Source: Escherichia coli
Lineage (GTDB): Bacteria; Pseudomonadota; Gammaproteobacteria; Enterobacterales; Enterobacteriaceae
Direction: 5' to 3' (one strand)
DNA length: 20,033 nt
Assembly: GCF_003334315.1 (NCBI RefSeq)
Contig: NZ_QOWR01000069.1
The notes under the pieces are model-generated. The model did no database searches and was not told the origin of the DNA. It saw only the letters and a list, made by a program, of their open reading frames with translations. Position 1 is the first letter of the stretch. The number at the start of each line of letters is the position of its first letter. This document shows, in pieces, positions 1 through 20,033 of this stretch. Position numbers and translations under genes: made by a program.

Positions 1-83
1 CCGCCGGGAGCGGATTTGAACGTTGCGAAGCAACGGCCCGGAGGGTGGCGGGCAGGACGCCCGCCATAAACTGCCAGGCATCA
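1..83 (+). other. Distal trailer of an rRNA operon; ends in a 5S-rRNA-like 3' fragment (aactgccaggcat)
   Basis: Sequence matches what I recall of the rrn T1-T2 spacer/5S-like remnant; the following genes (mobB-mobA) are the ones I remember flanking an rrn operon in E. coli. From memory, no search. Confidence 0.5.
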
Positions 84-91
84 AATTAAGC

Positions 92-122
92 AGAAGGCCA
101 TCCTGACGGATGGCCTTTTTGC
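92..122 (+). terminator. Rho-independent terminator, rrn T2-like
   Basis: Perfect GC-rich inverted repeat aaggccatcc / ggatggcctt (94-103 / 108-117) with a 4-nt loop, followed by a T-run. Confidence 0.75.
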
Positions 123-182
123 ATTGGTGCAGAAAAAAATGCCGGATGCGACGCTGGCGCGTCTTATCCAGCCTACTCTTGC

Positions 183-710
183 TTATCCGTTCTGCTTTTG
201 CATCCACTCCACCACAAAATCAGCCAGCCCCTCAACATCATTAATATCCAGTAATGCGACATCAAGATTAAGCGGCACATCACTGGCTACAGCAATAACA
301 TGCCTGTCTATCACTAATTCTTCAGGTCGATGTCCGGCTCCATCGCGAAACAGCACAATCTTTGCGATCTCTTCATGCTTAAACCCTTCGACCAGAATCA
401 AATCCAGCTTTGAGGTATCCATTCGACTTGCGAGAAACTGTAGATCCAGCTCTTCTTCGTCTGGTGTTTCCGTCATCAAGGCCCATCGTTGCTGGCTGGC
501 AACGATGGTTTGTGCCGCACCAGCCTTGCGCAGCTCATAGCTATCTTTGCCTGGCTTATCAACATCCATATCATGGTGCGTATGCTTAATCAGCCCTGGA
601 CGGATCCCTCTGGCGCATAATGCCGGGATCAGTTTTTTCAAAAGCGTAGTTTTTCCGGTACCACTCCACGCGGCAAAGGCGAGTAACGGTATCATCGTTT
701 TTCCTGCCAT
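183..710 (-). CDS. mobB: Molybdopterin-guanine dinucleotide biosynthesis adapter protein MobB
   Basis: ORF-track 175 aa with Walker A motif [10 protein letters not shown]. Alternative internal start at 695 (MIPLL...) would overlap the mobA stop as ATGA; the start at 710 has a GAGGAG SD 8 nt upstream. Confidence 0.9.
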
Positions 711-1276
711 CGGGCAAGCTCCTCTGGCGTATTCACGTTAACAAATGCATCTTTATGATCGCTGAAATCAACCGCATGACCGCCAGCCAGACGCATAAAT
801 GCCATTACCCGGCGTTCTCCTGCTTGCAGATATTCCAGTAATAAAGGCTCAATAGCGCGGTTTACCAGAGCAATAGTCGGGTGATCGCGTTCACCGTCAT
901 GGACCCACACGACAGGCGCATCTTTGCGCTGATGATTAAGCCTGGCTGCTAAATCAGGGGGAATGTAAGGCGTATCGCACGGGCAAAACAAAAACCACTC
1001 ACCAGCTTCCTGCTGCATTACTGAAAGCATTCCTGCCAGAGGGCCTGGGTAATCCGCCAGTGAATCTTCAATCACTTTCAGACCGCTTGCCTGATAGATT
1101 TCCTGATGACGATTAGCATTAACCACGACGTGAGAGAGCTGCGTCATAAGCGCGTCAGCGACATGTTGCCATAATGGTTTGCCGTTTAATTCAAGCAATC
1201 CTTTATCTACGCCGCCCATTCGTCTGGCTTTACCGCCTGCCAGCACAACGCCTGTTATCGTCGTCATCAGATTCAC
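692..1276 (-). CDS. mobA: Molybdenum cofactor guanylyltransferase MobA
   Basis: 194 aa ORF with N-terminal [11 protein letters not shown] nucleotide-binding motif; stop overlaps the mobB start region, consistent with a mobAB operon. Confidence 0.95.
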
Positions 1277-1345
1277 CGATATCGCCTCTTTTATTGTGGG
1301 ATTGACCCTGCTAACGTGTCTGTCTCAAGAGTAAGGAGCATCACT

Positions 1346-1615
1346 ATGAAATGTAAACGTCTGAATGAAGTTATTGAACTCCTCCAGCCAGCCTGGCAAA
1401 AAGAGCCAGACCTTAACCTGCTGCAATTTTTGCAGAAACTGGCGAAAGAGTCAGGTTTTGACGGCGAACTGGCGGATTTGACGGATGACATTCTGATCTA
1501 TCACCTGAAAATGCGTGATTCCGCGAAAGATGCGGTGATCCCGGGTTTGCAGAAAGATTATGAAGAAGACTTCAAAACGGCGCTGTTACGCGCTCGCGGC
1601 GTAATTAAAGAGTAA
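1346..1615 (+). CDS. yihD: Conserved small protein YihD (DUF1040)
   Basis: ORF-track ORF starts at 1316; I trimmed to ATG 1346 (MKCKRLNEV..., 89 aa), which has a TAAGGAG SD at 1332-1338. Confidence 0.85.
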
Positions 1616-1691
1616 AAGCTTGTAAGCGGCGCCACCAAAATCATCGTGAAATGATATCCTTCGTCATTCGTAATGTTTTCCGGATGATGGG

Positions 1692-2678
1692 ATGAATAAC
1701 AGCGCTTTTACTTTCCAGACACTACACCCGGATACCATCATGGACGCTCTGTTTGAGCATGGGATCCGGGTGGATTCCGGTCTTACCCCGCTTAACAGCT
1801 ATGAAAACCGTGTCTATCAATTTCAGGACGAAGATCGTCGACGTTTTGTCGTCAAATTTTATCGCCCTGAACGTTGGACAGCCGATCAAATCCTCGAAGA
1901 ACATCAATTTGCGTTGCAGCTGGTAAATGATGAAGTTCCGGTCGCAGCACCTGTGGCCTTTAACGGTCAGACTTTATTGAATCATCAGGGATTTTATTTC
2001 GCTGTTTTTCCAAGCGTCGGTGGTCGCCAGTTCGAAGCTGATAATATCGATCAGATGGAAGCGGTTGGGCGTTATTTAGGGCGTATGCACCAGACGGGGC
2101 GCAAACAGCTTTTTATCCATCGCCCGACCATCGGTTTGAACGAATATCTCATTGAGCCACGCAAGCTGTTTGAGGACGCTACACTGATACCTTCCGGGTT
2201 GAAAGCGGCATTCCTGAAAGCGACAGATGAGCTGATTGCCGCCGTTACAGCACACTGGCGGGAAGATTTCACCGTTCTGCGGCTACATGGAGACTGCCAC
2301 GCCGGGAATATTCTCTGGCGCGATGGTCCAATGTTTGTTGATCTGGATGATGCACGTAATGGTCCAGCCGTTCAGGATTTGTGGATGTTGCTCAATGGCG
2401 ATAAAGCCGAGCAGCGGATACAACTGGAAACTATTATTGAAGCTTATGAAGAATTTAGCGAGTTCGACACCGCTGAAATCGGACTGATTGAACCTTTACG
2501 CGCCATGCGTTTGGTTTATTATCTTGCCTGGCTAATGCGGCGTTGGGCTGATCCCGCGTTCCCGAAAAATTTCCCGTGGTTAACCGGGGAAGATTACTGG
2601 CTGCGACAGACGGCGACTTTTATAGAACAGGCAAAAGTTCTACAAGAACCCCCTTTGCAATTAACACCTATGTATTAA
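1692..2678 (+). CDS. srkA: Stress-response Ser/Thr protein kinase SrkA (YihE/RdoA)
   Basis: 328 aa; eukaryotic-like kinase catalytic loop HGDCHAGNILW and DLDD metal-binding motif; sits immediately upstream of dsbA as in the known yihE-dsbA operon. Confidence 0.9.
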   Translation: MNNSAFTFQTLHPDTIMDALFEHGIRVDSGLTPLNSYENRVYQFQDEDRRRFVVKFYRPERWTADQILEEHQFALQLVNDEVPVAAPVAFNGQTLLNHQGFYFAVFPSVGGRQFEADNIDQMEAVGRYLGRMHQTGRKQLFIHRPTIGLNEYLIEPRKLFEDATLIPSGLKAAFLKATDELIAAVTAHWREDFTVLRLHGDCHAGNILWRDGPMFVDLDDARNGPAVQDLWMLLNGDKAEQRIQLETIIEAYEEFSEFDTAEIGLIEPLRAMRLVYYLAWLMRRWADPAFPKNFPWLTGEDYWLRQTATFIEQAKVLQEPPLQLTPMY

Positions 2679-2694
2679 TCGGAGAGAGTAGATC

Positions 2695-3321
2695 ATGAAA
2701 AAGATTTGGCTGGCGCTGGCTGGTTTAGTTTTAGCGTTTAGCGCATCGGCGGCGCAGTATGAAGATGGTAAACAGTACACTACCCTGGAAAAACCGGTAG
2801 CTGGCGCGCCGCAAGTGCTGGAGTTTTTCTCTTTCTTCTGCCCGCACTGCTATCAGTTTGAAGAAGTTCTGCATATTTCTGATAATGTGAAGAAAAAACT
2901 GCCGGAAGGCGTGAAGATGACTAAATACCACGTCAACTTCATGGGTGGTGACCTGGGCAAAGATCTGACTCAGGCATGGGCTGTGGCGATGGCGCTGGGC
3001 GTGGAAGACAAAGTGACTGTTCCGCTGTTTGAAGGCGTACAGAAAACCCAGACCATTCGTTCTGCTTCTGATATCCGCGATGTATTTATCAACGCAGGTA
3101 TTAAAGGTGAAGAGTACGACGCGGCGTGGAACAGCTTCGTGGTGAAATCTCTGGTCGCTCAGCAGGAAAAAGCTGCAGCTGACGTGCAATTGCGTGGCGT
3201 TCCGGCGATGTTTGTTAACGGTAAATATCAGCTGAATCCGCAGGGTATGGATACCAGCAATATGGATGTTTTTGTTCAGCAGTATGCTGATACAGTGAAA
3301 TATCTGTCCGAGAAAAAATAA
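2695..3321 (+). CDS. dsbA: Periplasmic thiol:disulfide oxidoreductase DsbA
   Basis: 208 aa with signal peptide ([19 protein letters not shown]) and thioredoxin-fold active site CPHC; GGAGAG SD upstream. Confidence 0.97.
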
Positions 3322-3338
3322 TTCAATGTAAATTACAT

Positions 3339-3368
3339 AAAGCCCGTGAATATTCACGGGCTTTTTTT
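3339..3368 (+). terminator. Rho-independent terminator downstream of dsbA
   Basis: Inverted repeat agcccgtg / cacgggct with 6-nt loop, followed by a run of seven T. Confidence 0.8.
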
Positions 3369-3475
3369 ATTATTTAATAAATATAAATACATTCTGATAA
3401 TGCATCCTGCCGCTGGACATTATTTCAGCATAAGTGGATATTCAAAGTTTTGCTGTTTTATCAGGGAATATTTAT

Positions 3476-4906
3476 ATGATACGTAAGTCAGCTACAGGTG
3501 TTATTGTTGCGTTAGCCGTAATCTGGGGTGGTGGCACATGGTACACAGGTACGCAAATTCAGCCTGGTGTCGAAAAATTTATTAAAGATTTTAACGATGC
3601 TAAAAAGAAAGGTGAACATGCCTACGATATGACGTTAAGTTATCAAAATTTTGACAAAGGCTTTTTTAATTCCCGTTTTCAAATGCAAATGACATTCGAT
3701 AACGGTGCACCCGATCTCAATATCAAGCCAGGCCAGAAAGTTGTATTTGATGTGGATGTTGAGCACGGTCCGTTGCCCATCACAATGTTAATGCATGGTA
3801 ATGTCATCCCAGCACTGGCAGCGGCAAAAGTGAACTTAGTGAATAATGAACTGACACAACCGCTATTTATCGCCGCGAAAAATAAATCGCCCGTGGAAGC
3901 GACATTGCGATTCGCGTTTGGTGGCTCATTCTCTACGACATTAGATGTTGCCCCTGCAGAGTATGGAAAGTTTTCTTTTGGTGAGGGCCAGTTTACTTTT
4001 AATGGTGATGGTAGTTCATTGTCTAACCTGGATATTGAAGGCAAAGTCGAAGATATTGTTCTGCAATTATCACCAATGAACAAAGTAACGGCAAAAAGTT
4101 TTACCATTGATTCTCTGGCGCGATTAGAAGAAAAGAAATTTCCGGTTGGTGAAAGCGAGTCGAAATTTAATCAGATTAACATTATCAATCACGGGGAAGA
4201 CGTTGCCCAAATCGATGCTTTCGTTGCAAAAACCAGGCTGGATCGCGTTAAAGACAAAGATTATATCAATGTCAATCTCACCTACGAACTTGATAAGTTA
4301 ACAAAAGGGAATCAGCAACTCGGTAGTGGTGAGTGGTCATTGATTGCTGAATCTATTGATCCCTCAGCAGTGCGCCAATTTATCATCCAGTATAACATTG
4401 CGATGCAGAAGCAGCTTGCTGCACACCCTGAGTTAGCAAACGATGAAGTTGCTCTGCAAGAAGTGAATGCTGCATTGTTCAAAGAGTATTTACCGTTATT
4501 ACAAAAAAGTGAGCCGACCATTAAACAACCGGTAAGATGGAAGAACGCACTCGGCGAACTAAATGCCAATCTGGATATCAGTATTGCCGACCCAGCCAAA
4601 TCTTCATCATCCACAAACAAAGATATCAAATCGCTCAATTTTGATGTGAAGTTACCGCTTAATGTCGTCACAGAAACCGCAAAACAGCTTAATTTATCTG
4701 AAGGAATGGATGCGGAAAAAGCGCAAAAGCAGGCTGATAAACAAATCAGCGGGATGATGACATTAGGTCAGATGTTTCAGTTAATCACGATTGACAACAA
4801 TACCGCCTCGCTGCAGCTGCGTTATACACCGGGTAAAGTTGTTTTTAACGGACAGGAGATGAGCGAAGAAGAATTTATGTCTCGTGCCGGACGTTTTGTT
4901 CATTAA
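3476..4906 (+). CDS. yihF: DUF945-family protein YihF, N-terminal membrane anchor or signal, function unknown
   Basis: ORF-track ORF begins at GTG 3434; I prefer ATG 3476 (MIRKSATGVIVALAVIWGGG..., 476 aa), preceded by an AGGGA SD. Hydrophobic N-terminus, remainder hydrophilic. Confidence 0.85.
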   Translation: MIRKSATGVIVALAVIWGGGTWYTGTQIQPGVEKFIKDFNDAKKKGEHAYDMTLSYQNFDKGFFNSRFQMQMTFDNGAPDLNIKPGQKVVFDVDVEHGPLPITMLMHGNVIPALAAAKVNLVNNELTQPLFIAAKNKSPVEATLRFAFGGSFSTTLDVAPAEYGKFSFGEGQFTFNGDGSSLSNLDIEGKVEDIVLQLSPMNKVTAKSFTIDSLARLEEKKFPVGESESKFNQINIINHGEDVAQIDAFVAKTRLDRVKDKDYINVNLTYELDKLTKGNQQLGSGEWSLIAESIDPSAVRQFIIQYNIAMQKQLAAHPELANDEVALQEVNAALFKEYLPLLQKSEPTIKQPVRWKNALGELNANLDISIADPAKSSSSTNKDIKSLNFDVKLPLNVVTETAKQLNLSEGMDAEKAQKQADKQISGMMTLGQMFQLITIDNNTASLQLRYTPGKVVFNGQEMSEEEFMSRAGRFVH

Positions 4907-4910
4907 AATA

Positions 4911-4941
4911 CTCACTCGCCTCTGCTCATTCAGAGGCGAGT
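4911..4941. terminator. Hairpin between convergent yihF and yihG, likely bidirectional terminator
   Basis: Inverted repeat actcgcctctg / cagaggcgagt (4914-4924 / 4931-4941) with a 6-nt loop, in the 40-bp gap between two convergent stop codons. Confidence 0.55.
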
Positions 4942-4946
4942 AAAAC

Positions 4947-5879
4947 TTACTTATTCTGACGCTGTGATGACATGAGAGACGTCAGAAGCCGGTCTTTTTC
5001 CTGCCACAATGAGTTCAGCCATTGCTGAAAATGGCGCTTAAAGCTTTTGTCATTGATGTAGTCGCCATGTAACTCATCGGCAATAGGCTGTAAATCCACA
5101 TGTACGACAATCCGCGTCAGTTTACCGCTTAACATATCGAAGAACGGCTGACGGTTATTGTCCGGATAACACAGCGTAACATTAAGCAGTTTATCGAATT
5201 GTTTACCCAGTACATTTAGCGCCATCGCAATGCCTGCCGCCTTTGGTGGCAACAAGTTTTGAAAAGTGGAGTGGGTTTGCTGATGTTTTTCTTGCGTGAA
5301 ACGGGAGCCTTCAACGAAATTGACAATGGTGGTGGGATGCAGGCGAAACTTTTCACAAGAACGCCGAGTGGTTTCAACATCTTTACCACGTCGCTCCGGA
5401 TGACGTAATAAATAAGCGCGGGAATAACGCTTCATAAACGGCATATCCAGCGACCAGCACGCCAGGCCAAGAAATGGCACCCAGGCCAGCTGTTGCTTGA
5501 GGAAATATTTATTCATCGGAATGTGCTTACGAAACAGCACGCACAGTACGACAATATCTGCCCAACTACGGTGGTTACAAATAAGCAGATACCAGTTCTT
5601 CTTACTTAACCCTTCCAGCCCGTGAACTTCCCATTGCAGGTGTGGGTTCAGATGCAGTAATACCGCCAGACCTTCACACCAGCAATACATCATAAAATCA
5701 CAAAAACGCGAAACCTTTCGCCAAATGACTGGCACAGGTAGCAATAGTTTTACAATCCCGGCAATGATGATCGGGACGGAACAAAAAATAGTGACCAAAA
5801 TGGTCAATACGATACTCAGCAAAAGGGTTATCGCAGCGAGTATTCTCGTCATAATGAATTTATTCAAAAGGTTAGCCAT
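4947..5879 (-). CDS. yihG: PlsC-family (lysophospholipid) acyltransferase YihG
   Basis: Acyltransferase HX4D motif (CNHRSWADI) and N-terminal transmembrane segment; start chosen at the MANLLNKF... Met (310 aa) rather than the ORF-track upstream Met at 5903. Confidence 0.85.
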
Positions 5880-5969
5880 AGACAGTGCGCTAAAGAAGCG
5901 CAAGGCGCAGATTTTAGCAGAAAACGACCCAAATAACGGATGATCCTTAAGGAGAAAAATAATTCATAT

Positions 5970-5978
5970 CTATCCACA
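5970..5978. promoter_or_regulatory. DnaA-box-like 9-mer (ctatccaca, 8/9 match to TTATCCACA) in yihG-polA divergent promoter region
   Basis: Direct sequence match to the DnaA box consensus with one mismatch. Confidence 0.35.
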
Positions 5979-6110
5979 TTAGAAAAAATCCCATTATCTC
6001 AATTATTAGGGATGGATTTATTATTAACTGCATGAAAAACAAAGACAAACATCATGCTGTAAAAAGCATGATAATAAATTAAAAGCGATGTAAATAATTT
6101 ATGCACAAAG

Positions 6111-9029: not shown

Positions 9030-9176
9030 GATTCGCCTGAACATGCCCTTTTTTCGTAAGTAAGCAACATAAGCTGTCACGTTTTGTGATGGCTATTAGA
9101 AATTCCTATGCAACAACTGAAAAAAAATTACAAAAAGTGCTTTCTGAACTGAACAAAAAAGAGTAAAGTTAGTCGC

Positions 9177-9285
9177 GTAGGGTACAGAGGTAAGATGTTC
9201 TATCTTTCAGACCTTTTACTTCACGTAATCGGATTTGGCTGAATATTTTAGCCGCCCCAGTCAGTAATGACTGGGGCGTTTTTTA
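9177..9285 (+). ncRNA. spf: Spot 42 small regulatory RNA
   Basis: Sequence gtagggtacagaggtaagatgttctatctttcagacc... ending in the terminator hairpin ccccagtcagtaatgactgggg plus T-run, recognised as Spot 42; -10-like taaagt at 9164-9169. Confidence 0.9.
9195..9242 (+). CDS. spfP: 15-aa small protein encoded within Spot 42 (SpfP-like), MFYLSDLLLHVIGFG
   Basis: ATG at 9195 preceded by AGAGG; 15 sense codons then TGA, translated by hand. A dual-function Spot 42 peptide has been reported. Confidence 0.5.
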   Translation: MFYLSDLLLHVIGFG

Positions 9286-10313: not shown

Positions 10314-10556
10314 ATAGAGCGAGGACGCTAACAGGAACAATGACTCAGGATGAGGGTCAGGAGCGCCAGGAGGCGAAGACAGAGGATTGTCAGGAAGACA
10401 AACGTCCGGAGACGTAATTAAACGGAAATGGAATCAACACGGATTGTTCTGGCTAATGGAAAAACAGGGTGTGTTGGCGGCCTGCAAGGATTGTAAGACC
10501 CGTTAAGGGTTATGAGTCAGGAAAAAAGGCGACAGATTACTCTGTCGCCTTTTTTC
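10314..10556 (+). ncRNA. csrC: CsrC, CsrA-sequestering sRNA
   Basis: About 243 nt with 14 GGA triplets, mostly as AGGA/CAGGA, far above chance; -10-like taaagt at 10301-10306; ends in terminator aaaaaaggcgacag...ctgtcgcctttttt; sits between engB and yihI. 5' end approximate. Confidence 0.85.
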
Positions 10557-10624
10557 TTTGCTTGCTTTCTGTTAGATTCCGCCGCAAATCTATACTGAAT
10601 AAAACGGCTAAAAGACGAACCATT

Positions 10625-12739: not shown

Positions 12740-12760
12740 CAATGTGCTGAGAACAAGATT

Positions 12761-12797
12761 GCCTGATGCGGCGCTGGTCGCGTCTTATCAGGCCTAC
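12761..12797. repeat. REP element
   Basis: gcctgatgcggcgctggtcgcgtcttatcaggcctac, a classic REP palindrome shape. Confidence 0.7.
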
Positions 12798-17350: not shown

Positions 17351-17439
17351 CGCACCATCGTGCAAAAGGGCTGCACCACGATGTGAATGTTGCACCAATA
17401 TAGTGCTTCAATGGAAACATTAAGCACCATGTTGGTGCA
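17351..17439 (-). promoter_or_regulatory. Cluster of NtrC enhancer binding sites upstream of glnAp2
   Basis: Repeated TGCACC/GGTGCA half-sites: tgcaccaatatagtgct (17391-17407), agcaccatgttggtgca (17423-17439), weaker copies at 17351-17388. Confidence 0.65.
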
Positions 17440-17590
17440 ATGACCTTTGGATAACCCTTTTTATGCTCCGTGAAAGCGATCACAAAGGGACTCTGCAATA
17501 CTTGTTTGCGGAGGATGTTTGTGATCCTGTTTTGTAGTGCGATTAATCCGTGTACAATAACGCGCTATTTCTAATGCCTGAGGCAAAGTT

Positions 17591-19414
17591 GTGATCGAAA
17601 AATTGCGTAATATCGCCATCATCGCGCACGTAGACCATGGTAAAACCACCCTGGTAGACAAGCTGCTCCAACAATCCGGTACGTTCGACTCTCGTGCCGA
17701 AACCCAAGAGCGCGTGATGGACTCCAACGATTTGGAGAAAGAGCGTGGGATTACCATCCTCGCGAAAAACACCGCTATCAAATGGAATGATTACCGTATC
17801 AACATCGTTGATACCCCGGGGCACGCCGACTTCGGTGGTGAAGTTGAACGTGTAATGTCCATGGTAGACTCAGTGCTGCTGGTGGTTGACGCATTTGACG
17901 GCCCGATGCCGCAAACGCGCTTCGTAACCAAAAAAGCGTTTGCTTACGGCCTGAAGCCGATTGTTGTTATCAACAAAGTTGACCGCCCTGGCGCGCGTCC
18001 TGATTGGGTTGTGGATCAGGTATTCGATCTGTTCGTTAACCTCGACGCGACCGACGAGCAGCTGGACTTCCCGATCGTTTACGCTTCTGCGCTGAACGGT
18101 ATCGCGGGTCTGGACCACGAAGATATGGCGGAAGACATGACCCCGCTGTATCAGGCGATTGTTGATCACGTTCCTGCGCCGGACGTTGACCTTGACGGTC
18201 CGTTCCAGATGCAGATTTCTCAGCTCGATTACAACAGCTATGTTGGCGTTATCGGCATTGGCCGCATCAAGCGCGGTAAAGTGAAGCCGAACCAACAGGT
18301 CACTATCATCGATAGCGAAGGCAAAACCCGCAACGCGAAAGTCGGTAAAGTGCTGGGCCACCTCGGTCTGGAACGTATCGAAACCGATCTGGCGGAAGCT
18401 GGCGATATCGTGGCGATCACGGGCCTTGGCGAACTGAACATTTCTGACACCGTTTGCGACACGCAAAACGTTGAAGCGCTGCCGGCACTCTCCGTTGATG
18501 AGCCGACCGTTTCTATGTTCTTCTGCGTTAACACCTCGCCGTTCTGCGGTAAAGAAGGTAAGTTCGTAACGTCTCGTCAGATCCTGGATCGTCTGAACAA
18601 AGAACTGGTACACAACGTTGCGCTGCGCGTAGAAGAAACCGAAGACGCCGATGCGTTCCGCGTTTCTGGTCGTGGCGAACTGCACCTGTCTGTTCTGATC
18701 GAAAACATGCGTCGTGAAGGTTTCGAACTGGCGGTATCCCGTCCGAAAGTTATCTTCCGTGAAATCGACGGTCGTAAACAAGAGCCGTATGAAAACGTGA
18801 CGCTGGACGTTGAAGAACAGCATCAGGGTTCTGTAATGCAGGCGCTGGGCGAACGTAAAGGCGACCTGAAAAACATGAATCCAGACGGTAAAGGCCGCGT
18901 ACGTCTCGACTACGTGATCCCAAGCCGTGGTCTGATTGGCTTCCGTTCTGAGTTCATGACCATGACTTCCGGTACTGGTCTGCTGTACTCCACCTTCAGC
19001 CACTACGACGACGTACGTCCGGGTGAAGTGGGTCAGCGTCAGAACGGCGTACTGATCTCTAACGGTCAGGGTAAAGCGGTCGCGTTCGCGCTGTTCGGTC
19101 TGCAGGATCGCGGTAAGCTGTTCCTCGGTCACGGTGCAGAAGTTTACGAAGGTCAGATTATCGGTATTCATAGCCGCTCTAACGACCTGACTGTAAACTG
19201 CCTGACCGGTAAGAAACTGACCAACATGCGTGCTTCCGGTACTGACGAAGCCGTTGTTCTGGTTCCGCCTATCCGCATGACTCTGGAACAAGCTCTGGAG
19301 TTCATCGATGATGACGAACTGGTAGAAGTGACCCCGACCTCTATCCGTATTCGTAAACGTCACCTGACGGAAAACGATCGTCGTCGCGCCAACCGCGCAC
19401 CGAAAGACGATTAA
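17591..19414 (+). CDS. typA: Ribosome-associated translational GTPase BipA/TypA
   Basis: 607 aa, GTG start with GAGG SD; G-domain motifs [18 protein letters not shown]; EF-G-like domain architecture. Confidence 0.97.
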
Positions 19415-19431
19415 TTTCGTTTTTTAGTCAT

Positions 19432-19464
19432 AAAAAACCTGCCAGCGATGGCAGGTTTTTTTTT
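19432..19464 (+). terminator. Rho-independent terminator of typA
   Basis: A-run, stem cctgcca / tggcagg with 4-nt loop, then nine T. Confidence 0.85.
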
Positions 19465-19630
19465 GCCTGTCGTGAGCACTCAGCAATGCGAGTATCTCCC
19501 TTATAAGTCTGTGGTTACGTCAATAGAGAGCTTTGTCACAATTATCTGCAAAGTCATACGCCGTTAATTGCTTTCTTTTTTGGCGTAAGCGTAAGATGCC
19601 TCATCTGGTTTAAACCAAAAGGATTAAACA

Positions 19631-19652: not shown

Positions 19653-20033
19653 GGTGATGATGCCAACTTACTGATTTAGTGTATGATGGTGTTTTTGAGG
19701 TGCTCCAGTGGCTTCTGTTTCTATCAGCTGTCCCTCCTGTTCAGCTACTGACGGGGTGGTGCGTAACGGCAAAAGCACCGCCGGACATCAGCGCTATCTC
19801 TGCTCTCACTGCCGTAAAACATGGCAACTGCAGTTCACTTACACCGCTTCTCAACCCGGTACGCACCAGAAAATCATTGATATGGCCATGAATGGCGTTG
19901 GATGCCGGGCAACCGCCCGCATTATGGGCGTTGGCCTCAACACGATTTTCCGCCATTTAAAAAACTCAGGCCGCAGTCGGTAACCTCGCGCATACAGCCG
20001 GGCAGTGACGTCATCGTCTGCGCGGAAATGGAC
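19653..20033 (+). mobile_element. IS1 insertion sequence, left end and first 381 bp (truncated by window end)
   Basis: Left inverted repeat ggtgatgatgccaacttactgat; insA lies at element positions 56-331 exactly as in IS1; A6C frameshift motif ttaaaaaac at 19957-19965. Confidence 0.92.
19708..19983 (+). CDS. insA: IS1 InsA (transposition inhibitor / N-terminal part of InsAB' transposase)
   Basis: 91 aa, GTG start; zinc-finger-like CPSC...CSHC motif and HTH region ([21 protein letters not shown]...). Confidence 0.92.

Follow-up and report, generated by a model that had tools for sequence, protein, structure and literature searches.

Small RNAs are encoded between the terminators T1 and T2 by the genes rrA, rrB and rrF (RrA, RrB and RrF; Stenum et al. 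2021, Front Microbiol 12:625585, PMC8144298). They are transcribed by polymerase that reads through T1. RrB has a length of 173 nt; it starts 3 nt past the 3′ end of 5S rRNA, where RNase E is known to cut, and stops 3 nt past the second of two repeats, the 150-bp spacing of which has been described together with a proposed role for RNase E (PMC8144298). A short form of about 115 nt has a half-life of 2.5 min and binds Hfq, and binding of CsrA occurs through GGA motifs, as indicated by EMSA with a 3xGGA mutant (PMC8144298). The function of these RNAs in vivo is weakly supported; the phenotypes are modest, with deletion and overexpression shifting in the same direction, and deletion of all three genes from K-12 had only modest effects (PMC8144298).

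The three RNAs are placed among the tRNA-linked repeats, whose defining feature is that the 3′ end of the stable RNA located upstream recurs in them as a copy of 18-19 bp; binding of CsrA is predicted for RrA, RrB and RrF, and not for the repeats of tRNA operons (PMC8144298). The T1T2 cassette of cloning vectors carries rrB, and a warning to this effect has been given (PMC8144298). For T2 of rrnB, identical in sequence to the T2 discussed here, termination is reported to be 100%, and for T1 87% (Orosz 1991, as quoted in PMC8144298). A paper on rrn internal promoters (PMC5179076) contains nothing on the 3′ rrn terminators.

The start of the window lies in the tail of rrnA

We have analysed a stretch of 20,033 nt (hereafter the window), and can assign it with high confidence to the E. 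coli chromosome, beginning in the tail of the rRNA operon rrnA with the 3′ half of rrA followed by T2. The features at this end are as follows.

1-89, plus strand: 3′ part of rrA (about nt 85-173 of 173), between rrnA T1 and T2; identical to K-12 rrnA and rrnB
7-9, 12-14, 40-42 and 55-57, plus strand: GGA motifs, four of the five of RrA-short (sequence and fold)
21-35, plus strand: stem-loop CGTTGC-GAA-GCAACG, followed by GCCCGGAGGG (fold)
45-67, plus strand: stem-loop with a GC-rich stem of 9 bp and the loop AGGAC (RNA folds; invariant across genera)
69-86, plus strand: 18-nt direct repeat AACTGCCAGGCATCAAAT, comprising the last 13 nt of 5S rRNA and 5 trailing nt (CAAAT), with an RNase E processing site
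94-120, plus strand: T2 intrinsic terminator of rrnA; 10-bp stem of 94-103 with 108-117, loop TGAC at 104-107, T-run at 116-120
133-139 and 141-176, minus strand: A7 run (T7 on the minus strand) and probable REP element, read as a REP hairpin and then UUUUUUU
183-710, minus strand: mobB (ORF; annotated in K-12 and HS30-1)
692-1276, minus strand: mobA (ORF; annotated in K-12 and HS30-1)

Bases 1-122 are identical at 122 of 122 positions to K-12 rrnB from +88 to +209 after the 3′ end of rrfB, and are 94% identical to the tail of rrnD after rrfF. The comparison with K-12 rrnA can be extended to 1-200, where 199 of 200 bases match. From 123 onward the sequence runs through ATTGGTGCAGAAAAAAA and the probable REP element to the stop codon of mobB, and is that of the K-12 rrnA flank except for one substitution at 128. 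mobB and mobA are followed by yihD, srkA, dsbA, yihF, yihG, polA, Spot 42, yihA, CsrC, yihI, hemN, glnG, glnL, glnA and typA (from ORFs and Rfam), so that the gene order from mobB is that found in K-12 downstream of rrnA. Many complete chromosomes are 100% identical to the window over 1-6000, several of them with rrnA upstream; one of the latter is that of strain HS30-1. The first 19.6 kb are colinear with complete chromosomes, out to an IS1 junction at 19653, and the region 1-700 is matched by all 5426 complete E. coli genomes. A preliminary description of this DNA had taken the continuation into mobB-mobA as a sign that it is genomic and not contamination, and this is borne out by the rrnA-specific sequence from 123, the colinearity and the match in 5426 of 5426 genomes.

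In K-12 the DNA upstream has the order rrsA-ileT-alaT-rrlA-rrfA, and the same order is found in HS30-1, in agreement with the earlier statement that the window opens in the tail of an rrn operon. In both strains rrfA ends 87 nt before base 1, so that the window begins 88 nt downstream of it. In the coordinates of the K-12 rrnA locus base 1 is position 5725 and rrfA ends at 5637, with 5S rRNA confirmed by Rfam at 5520-5635 (90.5 bits). The interval between rrfA and base 1 is occupied in K-12 by T1, whose hairpin folds with −32.7 kcal/mol, and by the 5′ part of rrA. The preliminary description had placed the 5S gene just upstream. This holds for K-12 and HS30-1, with T1 and the 5′ part of rrA intervening, but the arrangement depends on the strain, as discussed below. 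For the source strain we infer the presence of the 5S gene and of T1 from the strains that are identical to it over 6 kb; going upstream from base 1, outside the window, the expected sequence is ...CTGAGTAGGACAAAT, then T1 with the rrnA-type loop GTCGGAAGAC, and then rrfA. Nothing within the window contradicts the chromosomal rrnA-tail reading.

Identity to cloning-vector sequence

Bases 1-122 are also present with 100% identity in the small vector-derived plasmids pAK51 (tetC, bla, rop) and pMQ. The BLAST E-values of the matches are between 5e-57 and 5e-68, so these are not due to chance. In the two plasmids a polylinker (MCS) and HindIII are followed by the 5S of rrnB, T1, T2, then GTTTCTACAAACTCTT, and then the bla promoter or other backbone. 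The match arises because such vectors carry a 5S-T1-rrB-T2 fragment of rrnB. The preliminary description was thus right to recognize rrn T2-type sequence known from expression vectors, given the 122 of 122 identities to K-12 rrnB and the full identity to pAK51 and pMQ. The distal part of the rrnB T1T2 cassette (of the pKK223-3, pTrc99A or pBAD type) corresponds to 1-122 base for base, including the 3′ half of rrB, the 18-nt 5S repeat, and the T2 hairpin with its T-run.

Two other origins for these bases were considered. One is vector contamination or a chimeric assembly, in which a plasmid-borne piece of rrnB T1T2 has been wrongly joined to chromosomal mobB. In its favour, 1-122 is identical to the pAK51/pMQ cassette (100%), and rrnA, rrnB and vector are indistinguishable there. 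At position 123, however, the window has A where rrnB and the vectors have G, and beyond 125 they are no longer similar; this agrees with the end that had been given for the shared stretch. The cassette continues with GTTTCTACAAACTCTT and vector DNA, whereas the window continues with ATTGGTGCAGAAAAAAA-REP-mobB; a continuation into the 3′ flank of rrnB or into vector backbone was looked for, and the sequence from 123 was found to be the rrnA flank and mobB. The window contains none of the vector sequence that comes after T2, namely GTTTCTACAAACTCTT followed by the bla promoter. Moreover the junction of 1-122 to the rrnA-specific ATTGG.GCAGAAAAAAA-REP-mobB is present in 1171 complete E. coli chromosomes, that of K-12 among them, and several complete genomes share the first 6 kb without a difference and have rrnA upstream. 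Vector contamination is effectively excluded, and we would give it a vanishingly small probability.

The other origin is the tail of rrnB or rrnD, which could be entertained from the 100% identity of 1-122 to rrnB and the 94% identity to rrnD. It is refuted by the flanking genes, and its probability is practically nil. rrnB runs into murB and rrnD into yhdZ, whereas the window runs into mobB-mobA-yihD-srkA-dsbA-polA, the neighbourhood of rrnA. The source is therefore rrnA, and not the rrnB of the cassettes. A further difference lies in T1, outside the window, where the loop is GGAA in rrnA and GAAA in rrnB and the vectors.

The window edge is thus a normal chromosomal rrnA tail despite its perfect identity to a common vector part, and both the tail and this identity are already known and ordinary. 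The same identity will recur wherever sequence touches rrnA, rrnB or rrnD of enterobacteria.

The T2 terminator and the probable end of mobAB

The preliminary description had named the first 120 nt a terminator region. This is correct for 94-120, which is T2, and is loose for 1-89, which is the 3′ half of rrA. Most of what was so labelled is thus a published small-RNA gene, and the label should be divided between rrA (1-89) and T2 (94-120).

The segment 86-125 containing T2 folds with −22.8 kcal/mol (z = −6.9), and none of 200 shuffled sequences folds as well. A U-rich tract lies directly 3′ of the hairpin, with TTTTT at 116-120 and then GCATT. We aligned 10 hairpins at the T2 position from five genera, taken from E. 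coli operons and strains, Klebsiella pneumoniae, K. aerogenes, Citrobacter freundii and two Salmonella. In this small sample (n = 10) 99% of the cells are paired, and four of the 10 pairs have compensatory changes on both sides. None of 500 shuffles reached the observed score, and when the partner columns were slid at most 60% were paired.

A consensus terminator scan of 1-1400 reported neither T2 nor the REP/T7 site. It is likely that T2 was missed in the scan when greedy stem extension, with A-U and G-U pairs, absorbed the T-run. We put this down to the limits of the tool, T2 being supported by both folding and covariation. We note that the T2-type hairpin of strain UTI89 (601-660 of its locus) has stems identical to those of 94-117, with the loop inverted, GTCA for TGAC.

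On the minus strand the segment 126-185 folds with −24.6 kcal/mol (z = −4.3). The sequence 141-176 has some likeness to the REP consensus, an imperfect palindrome of the type GCCGGATGCG...CTTATCCGGCCTAC. Against the REP-derived Rfam family naRNA4 it scores 35.8 bits, which is below the gathering threshold of 59.5. rrfG of K-12 is also followed by a T2-A7-REP arrangement. The REP hairpin with its seven U probably ends the mobAB transcript, and T2 read in the opposite direction (−21.6 kcal/mol) might provide a further one.

The rrA gene

The assignment of 1-89 was made by converting the published ends of RrB (PMC8144298) to the K-12 rrnA locus, giving 5641-5813, or −83 to 89 in window coordinates. 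Bases 1-122 are 100% identical to the K-12 rrA/rrB region, where at least 98% was asked for as a sign of an rrA/rrB gene. The gene lies directly downstream of a stable-RNA gene, rrfA (in K-12 and HS30-1), and has at its 3′ end a copy of the 3′ end of 5S, as in the tRNA-linked repeats. In its locus, its sequence, the 18-nt repeat with a spacing of 150 bp and the GGA motifs it is like the rrA, rrB and rrF of PMC8144298. It differs in being incomplete: of the 173-nt RNA the window holds no more than the last 89 nt, which make up roughly 89 of the approximately 115 nt of the short RNA.

The body of rrA within the window (1-68) contains the two conserved hairpins at 21-35 and 45-67, and a third that is cut by the window edge; base 1 falls in the 5′ arm of this stem-loop, the loop of which carries a GGA motif. 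The GGA at 55-57 is likewise placed in a loop, that of the 45-67 hairpin. The first copy of the 18-nt repeat ends 150 bp upstream of the second, outside the window. At gathering thresholds Rfam gave no family other than 5S over window 1-200 or the T1-T2 region of K-12, and it contains no model of RrA/B/F. That 1-68 might be a decayed copy of a tRNA or of 5S was considered; by eye there are only short resemblances beyond the 13-nt 3′ end of 5S (GAGTAGGAC with GAGTAGGGAAC of 5S, the latter upstream of the window).

The relationship to the tyrT RtT repeats, the founding tRNA-linked repeats, lies in the general arrangement and in one local motif. In each case the gene for a stable RNA is followed by a repeat unit that closes with a copy of that RNA's 3′ end. 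The motif is of about 30 nt, CGTTGC-loop-GCAACG-(A/G)CCCG(A/G)AGGG, and the stem-loop at 21-35 with the following GCCCGGAGGG is the only stretch that is like a tyrT repeat. By contrast, there is no significant overall similarity. The Rfam model RtT (RF00391) gave hits of 19.2 bits (window 1-76) and 17 bits, below the gathering score of 45, whereas the tyrT repeats themselves score 134-138 bits; BLAST against the tyrT repeats gave no significant match. The weak match of 1-76 can be explained by the membership of the RrA family in the tRNA-linked repeats. The link to RtT is based on the published family assignment (PMC8144298) and the one motif of about 30 nt, not on score.

The T1-rrA module is variably present in E. 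coli

Window 1-700 was searched against all complete E. coli genomes (n = 5426), with even sampling of the ranked matches. The matches fall into two classes, a long form that extends over 1-700, and a short form that covers only 69-700 and has 5S annotated under the match. At rrnA of UTI89 and of O157:H7 FRIK944 the 5S abuts a T2-type hairpin, without T1 and without rrA, as it does at rrnG of K-12. These single-terminator tails resemble the window in having the T2-type hairpin, the A-run and REP after the 5S 3′-end motif; they differ in that the 168 bp between the repeats are missing. The long form, counted by megablast with an 80% coverage criterion and with the caveat that rrn regions can be misassembled, is distributed as follows.

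rrnA (flank mobB): 1171 of 5426 genomes
rrnB (flank murB): 2521 of 5426 genomes
rrnD (flank yhdZ): 3249 of 5426 genomes

In about 78% of E. coli genomes the 5S of rrnA directly abuts a T2-type hairpin. A probe of T1 plus spacer found at least one copy in 3977 genomes, and no copy was detected by it in about 1449 (27%). Since bases 1-68 are present in the window, the source strain has the long form.

At every locus the short form starts at query position 69, the beginning of the 18-nt repeat, which is also the boundary of the polymorphism. The module comprises 168 bp between the two 18-nt repeats, counting one copy of the repeat. The start at 69 is consistent with the loss or gain of DNA between the repeats by deletion or insertion, or else with gene conversion among the tails of the operons. 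We are evenly divided on whether the module of T1 with rrA, rrB or rrF, the DNA that serves worldwide as the rrnB T1T2 terminator, is an unfixed component of the E. coli rRNA operons, a cassette whose gains and losses fall exactly between the two 18-nt copies of the end of 5S. A long form with an internal deletion of 38 nt is found next to mobB in Salmonella Infantis, so the long form of rrnA may be old.

We found no mention of strain variation of rrA/B/F in the text of PMC8144298, and no earlier reports of the polymorphism in the literature searched, although this is weak evidence of novelty. Should the pattern be real and previously unreported, there are triple-null strains in nature, and these would constrain the proposed CsrA/Hfq role of RrA, RrB and RrF and offer a ready-made test of it. 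The strain-level pattern of rrA is a modest addition, and it bears on the importance of RrA/B/F function.

The polymorphism bears also on an alternative in which the tail is only a fail-safe double terminator, and 1-89 is the decayed, functionless relic of a duplicated unit of 5S 3′ end plus terminator, RrA being a by-product of processing. Both T1 and T2 are preceded by a copy of the 5S 3′-end motif. In K. aerogenes and Salmonella Senftenberg (329-390 of each locus) the hairpin at the T2 position is T1-like, GGCTCA(A/G)TC...GA(T/C)(T/C)GGGCC, so that T1 and T2 look like paralogous copies of one unit of 5S 3′ end and hairpin. The absence of the module from rrnA in most E. coli genomes (about 78%) argues against an important role, and would sit well with a relic, as would its apparent absence from anywhere in the genome in about 27% and the modest phenotypes of the K-12 triple deletion (PMC8144298). 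Against this stands the conservation of the sequence. Among Escherichia, Klebsiella, Citrobacter and Salmonella the body of rrA (1-68) hardly varies, and is better conserved than the flanking stems of T1 and T2, which differ between the genera by compensatory substitutions; the near-invariance beside compensating stems points to selection on the sequence itself. In addition defined transcripts and specific, GGA-dependent binding of CsrA have been published (PMC8144298). On balance we consider a functionless relic rather unlikely.

A proposed sequence of events at the rrnA tail

The scheme that follows combines identity, location, hairpin stability and covariation from the present analysis with termination efficiencies and the processing and binding of RrA/B/F from published work on the identical rrnB sequence. 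Most RNA polymerase on rrnA (about 87%) would stop upstream of the window, at T1. Polymerases that read through would transcribe rrA and be halted at T2 (about 100%), and the stop at T2 may shield the convergent mobB-mobA from the very strong transcription of the rRNA operon. RNase E-type processing at both copies of the 5S 3′-end motif would free RrA, at 173 nt and then at about 115 nt. By analogy RrA should be short-lived, and should bind Hfq and CsrA. On the opposite strand the mobAB transcript would run to its putative stop at the REP hairpin and the seven U.

Other observations in the window

Rfam matches at gathering score elsewhere in the window are Spot 42 (9167-9285), CsrC (10314-10567), ES222 (17402-17509) and STnc370 (19399-19467). 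CsrC, a CsrA-sequestering RNA, is 10 kb from rrA, whose RNA is a reported binder of CsrA; this is probably coincidence. At 12760-12770, in the gap between hemN and yshB, the window has about 80-90 bp fewer than the closest complete genomes, apparently a REP-type repeat unit. The end of the window (19653-20033) is an IS1 element that is 98.7% identical to IS1A. In comparison with strain Z1323PEC0011, a segment of 730 bp including yihL is missing there, and IS1 directly follows the 3′ flank of typA.
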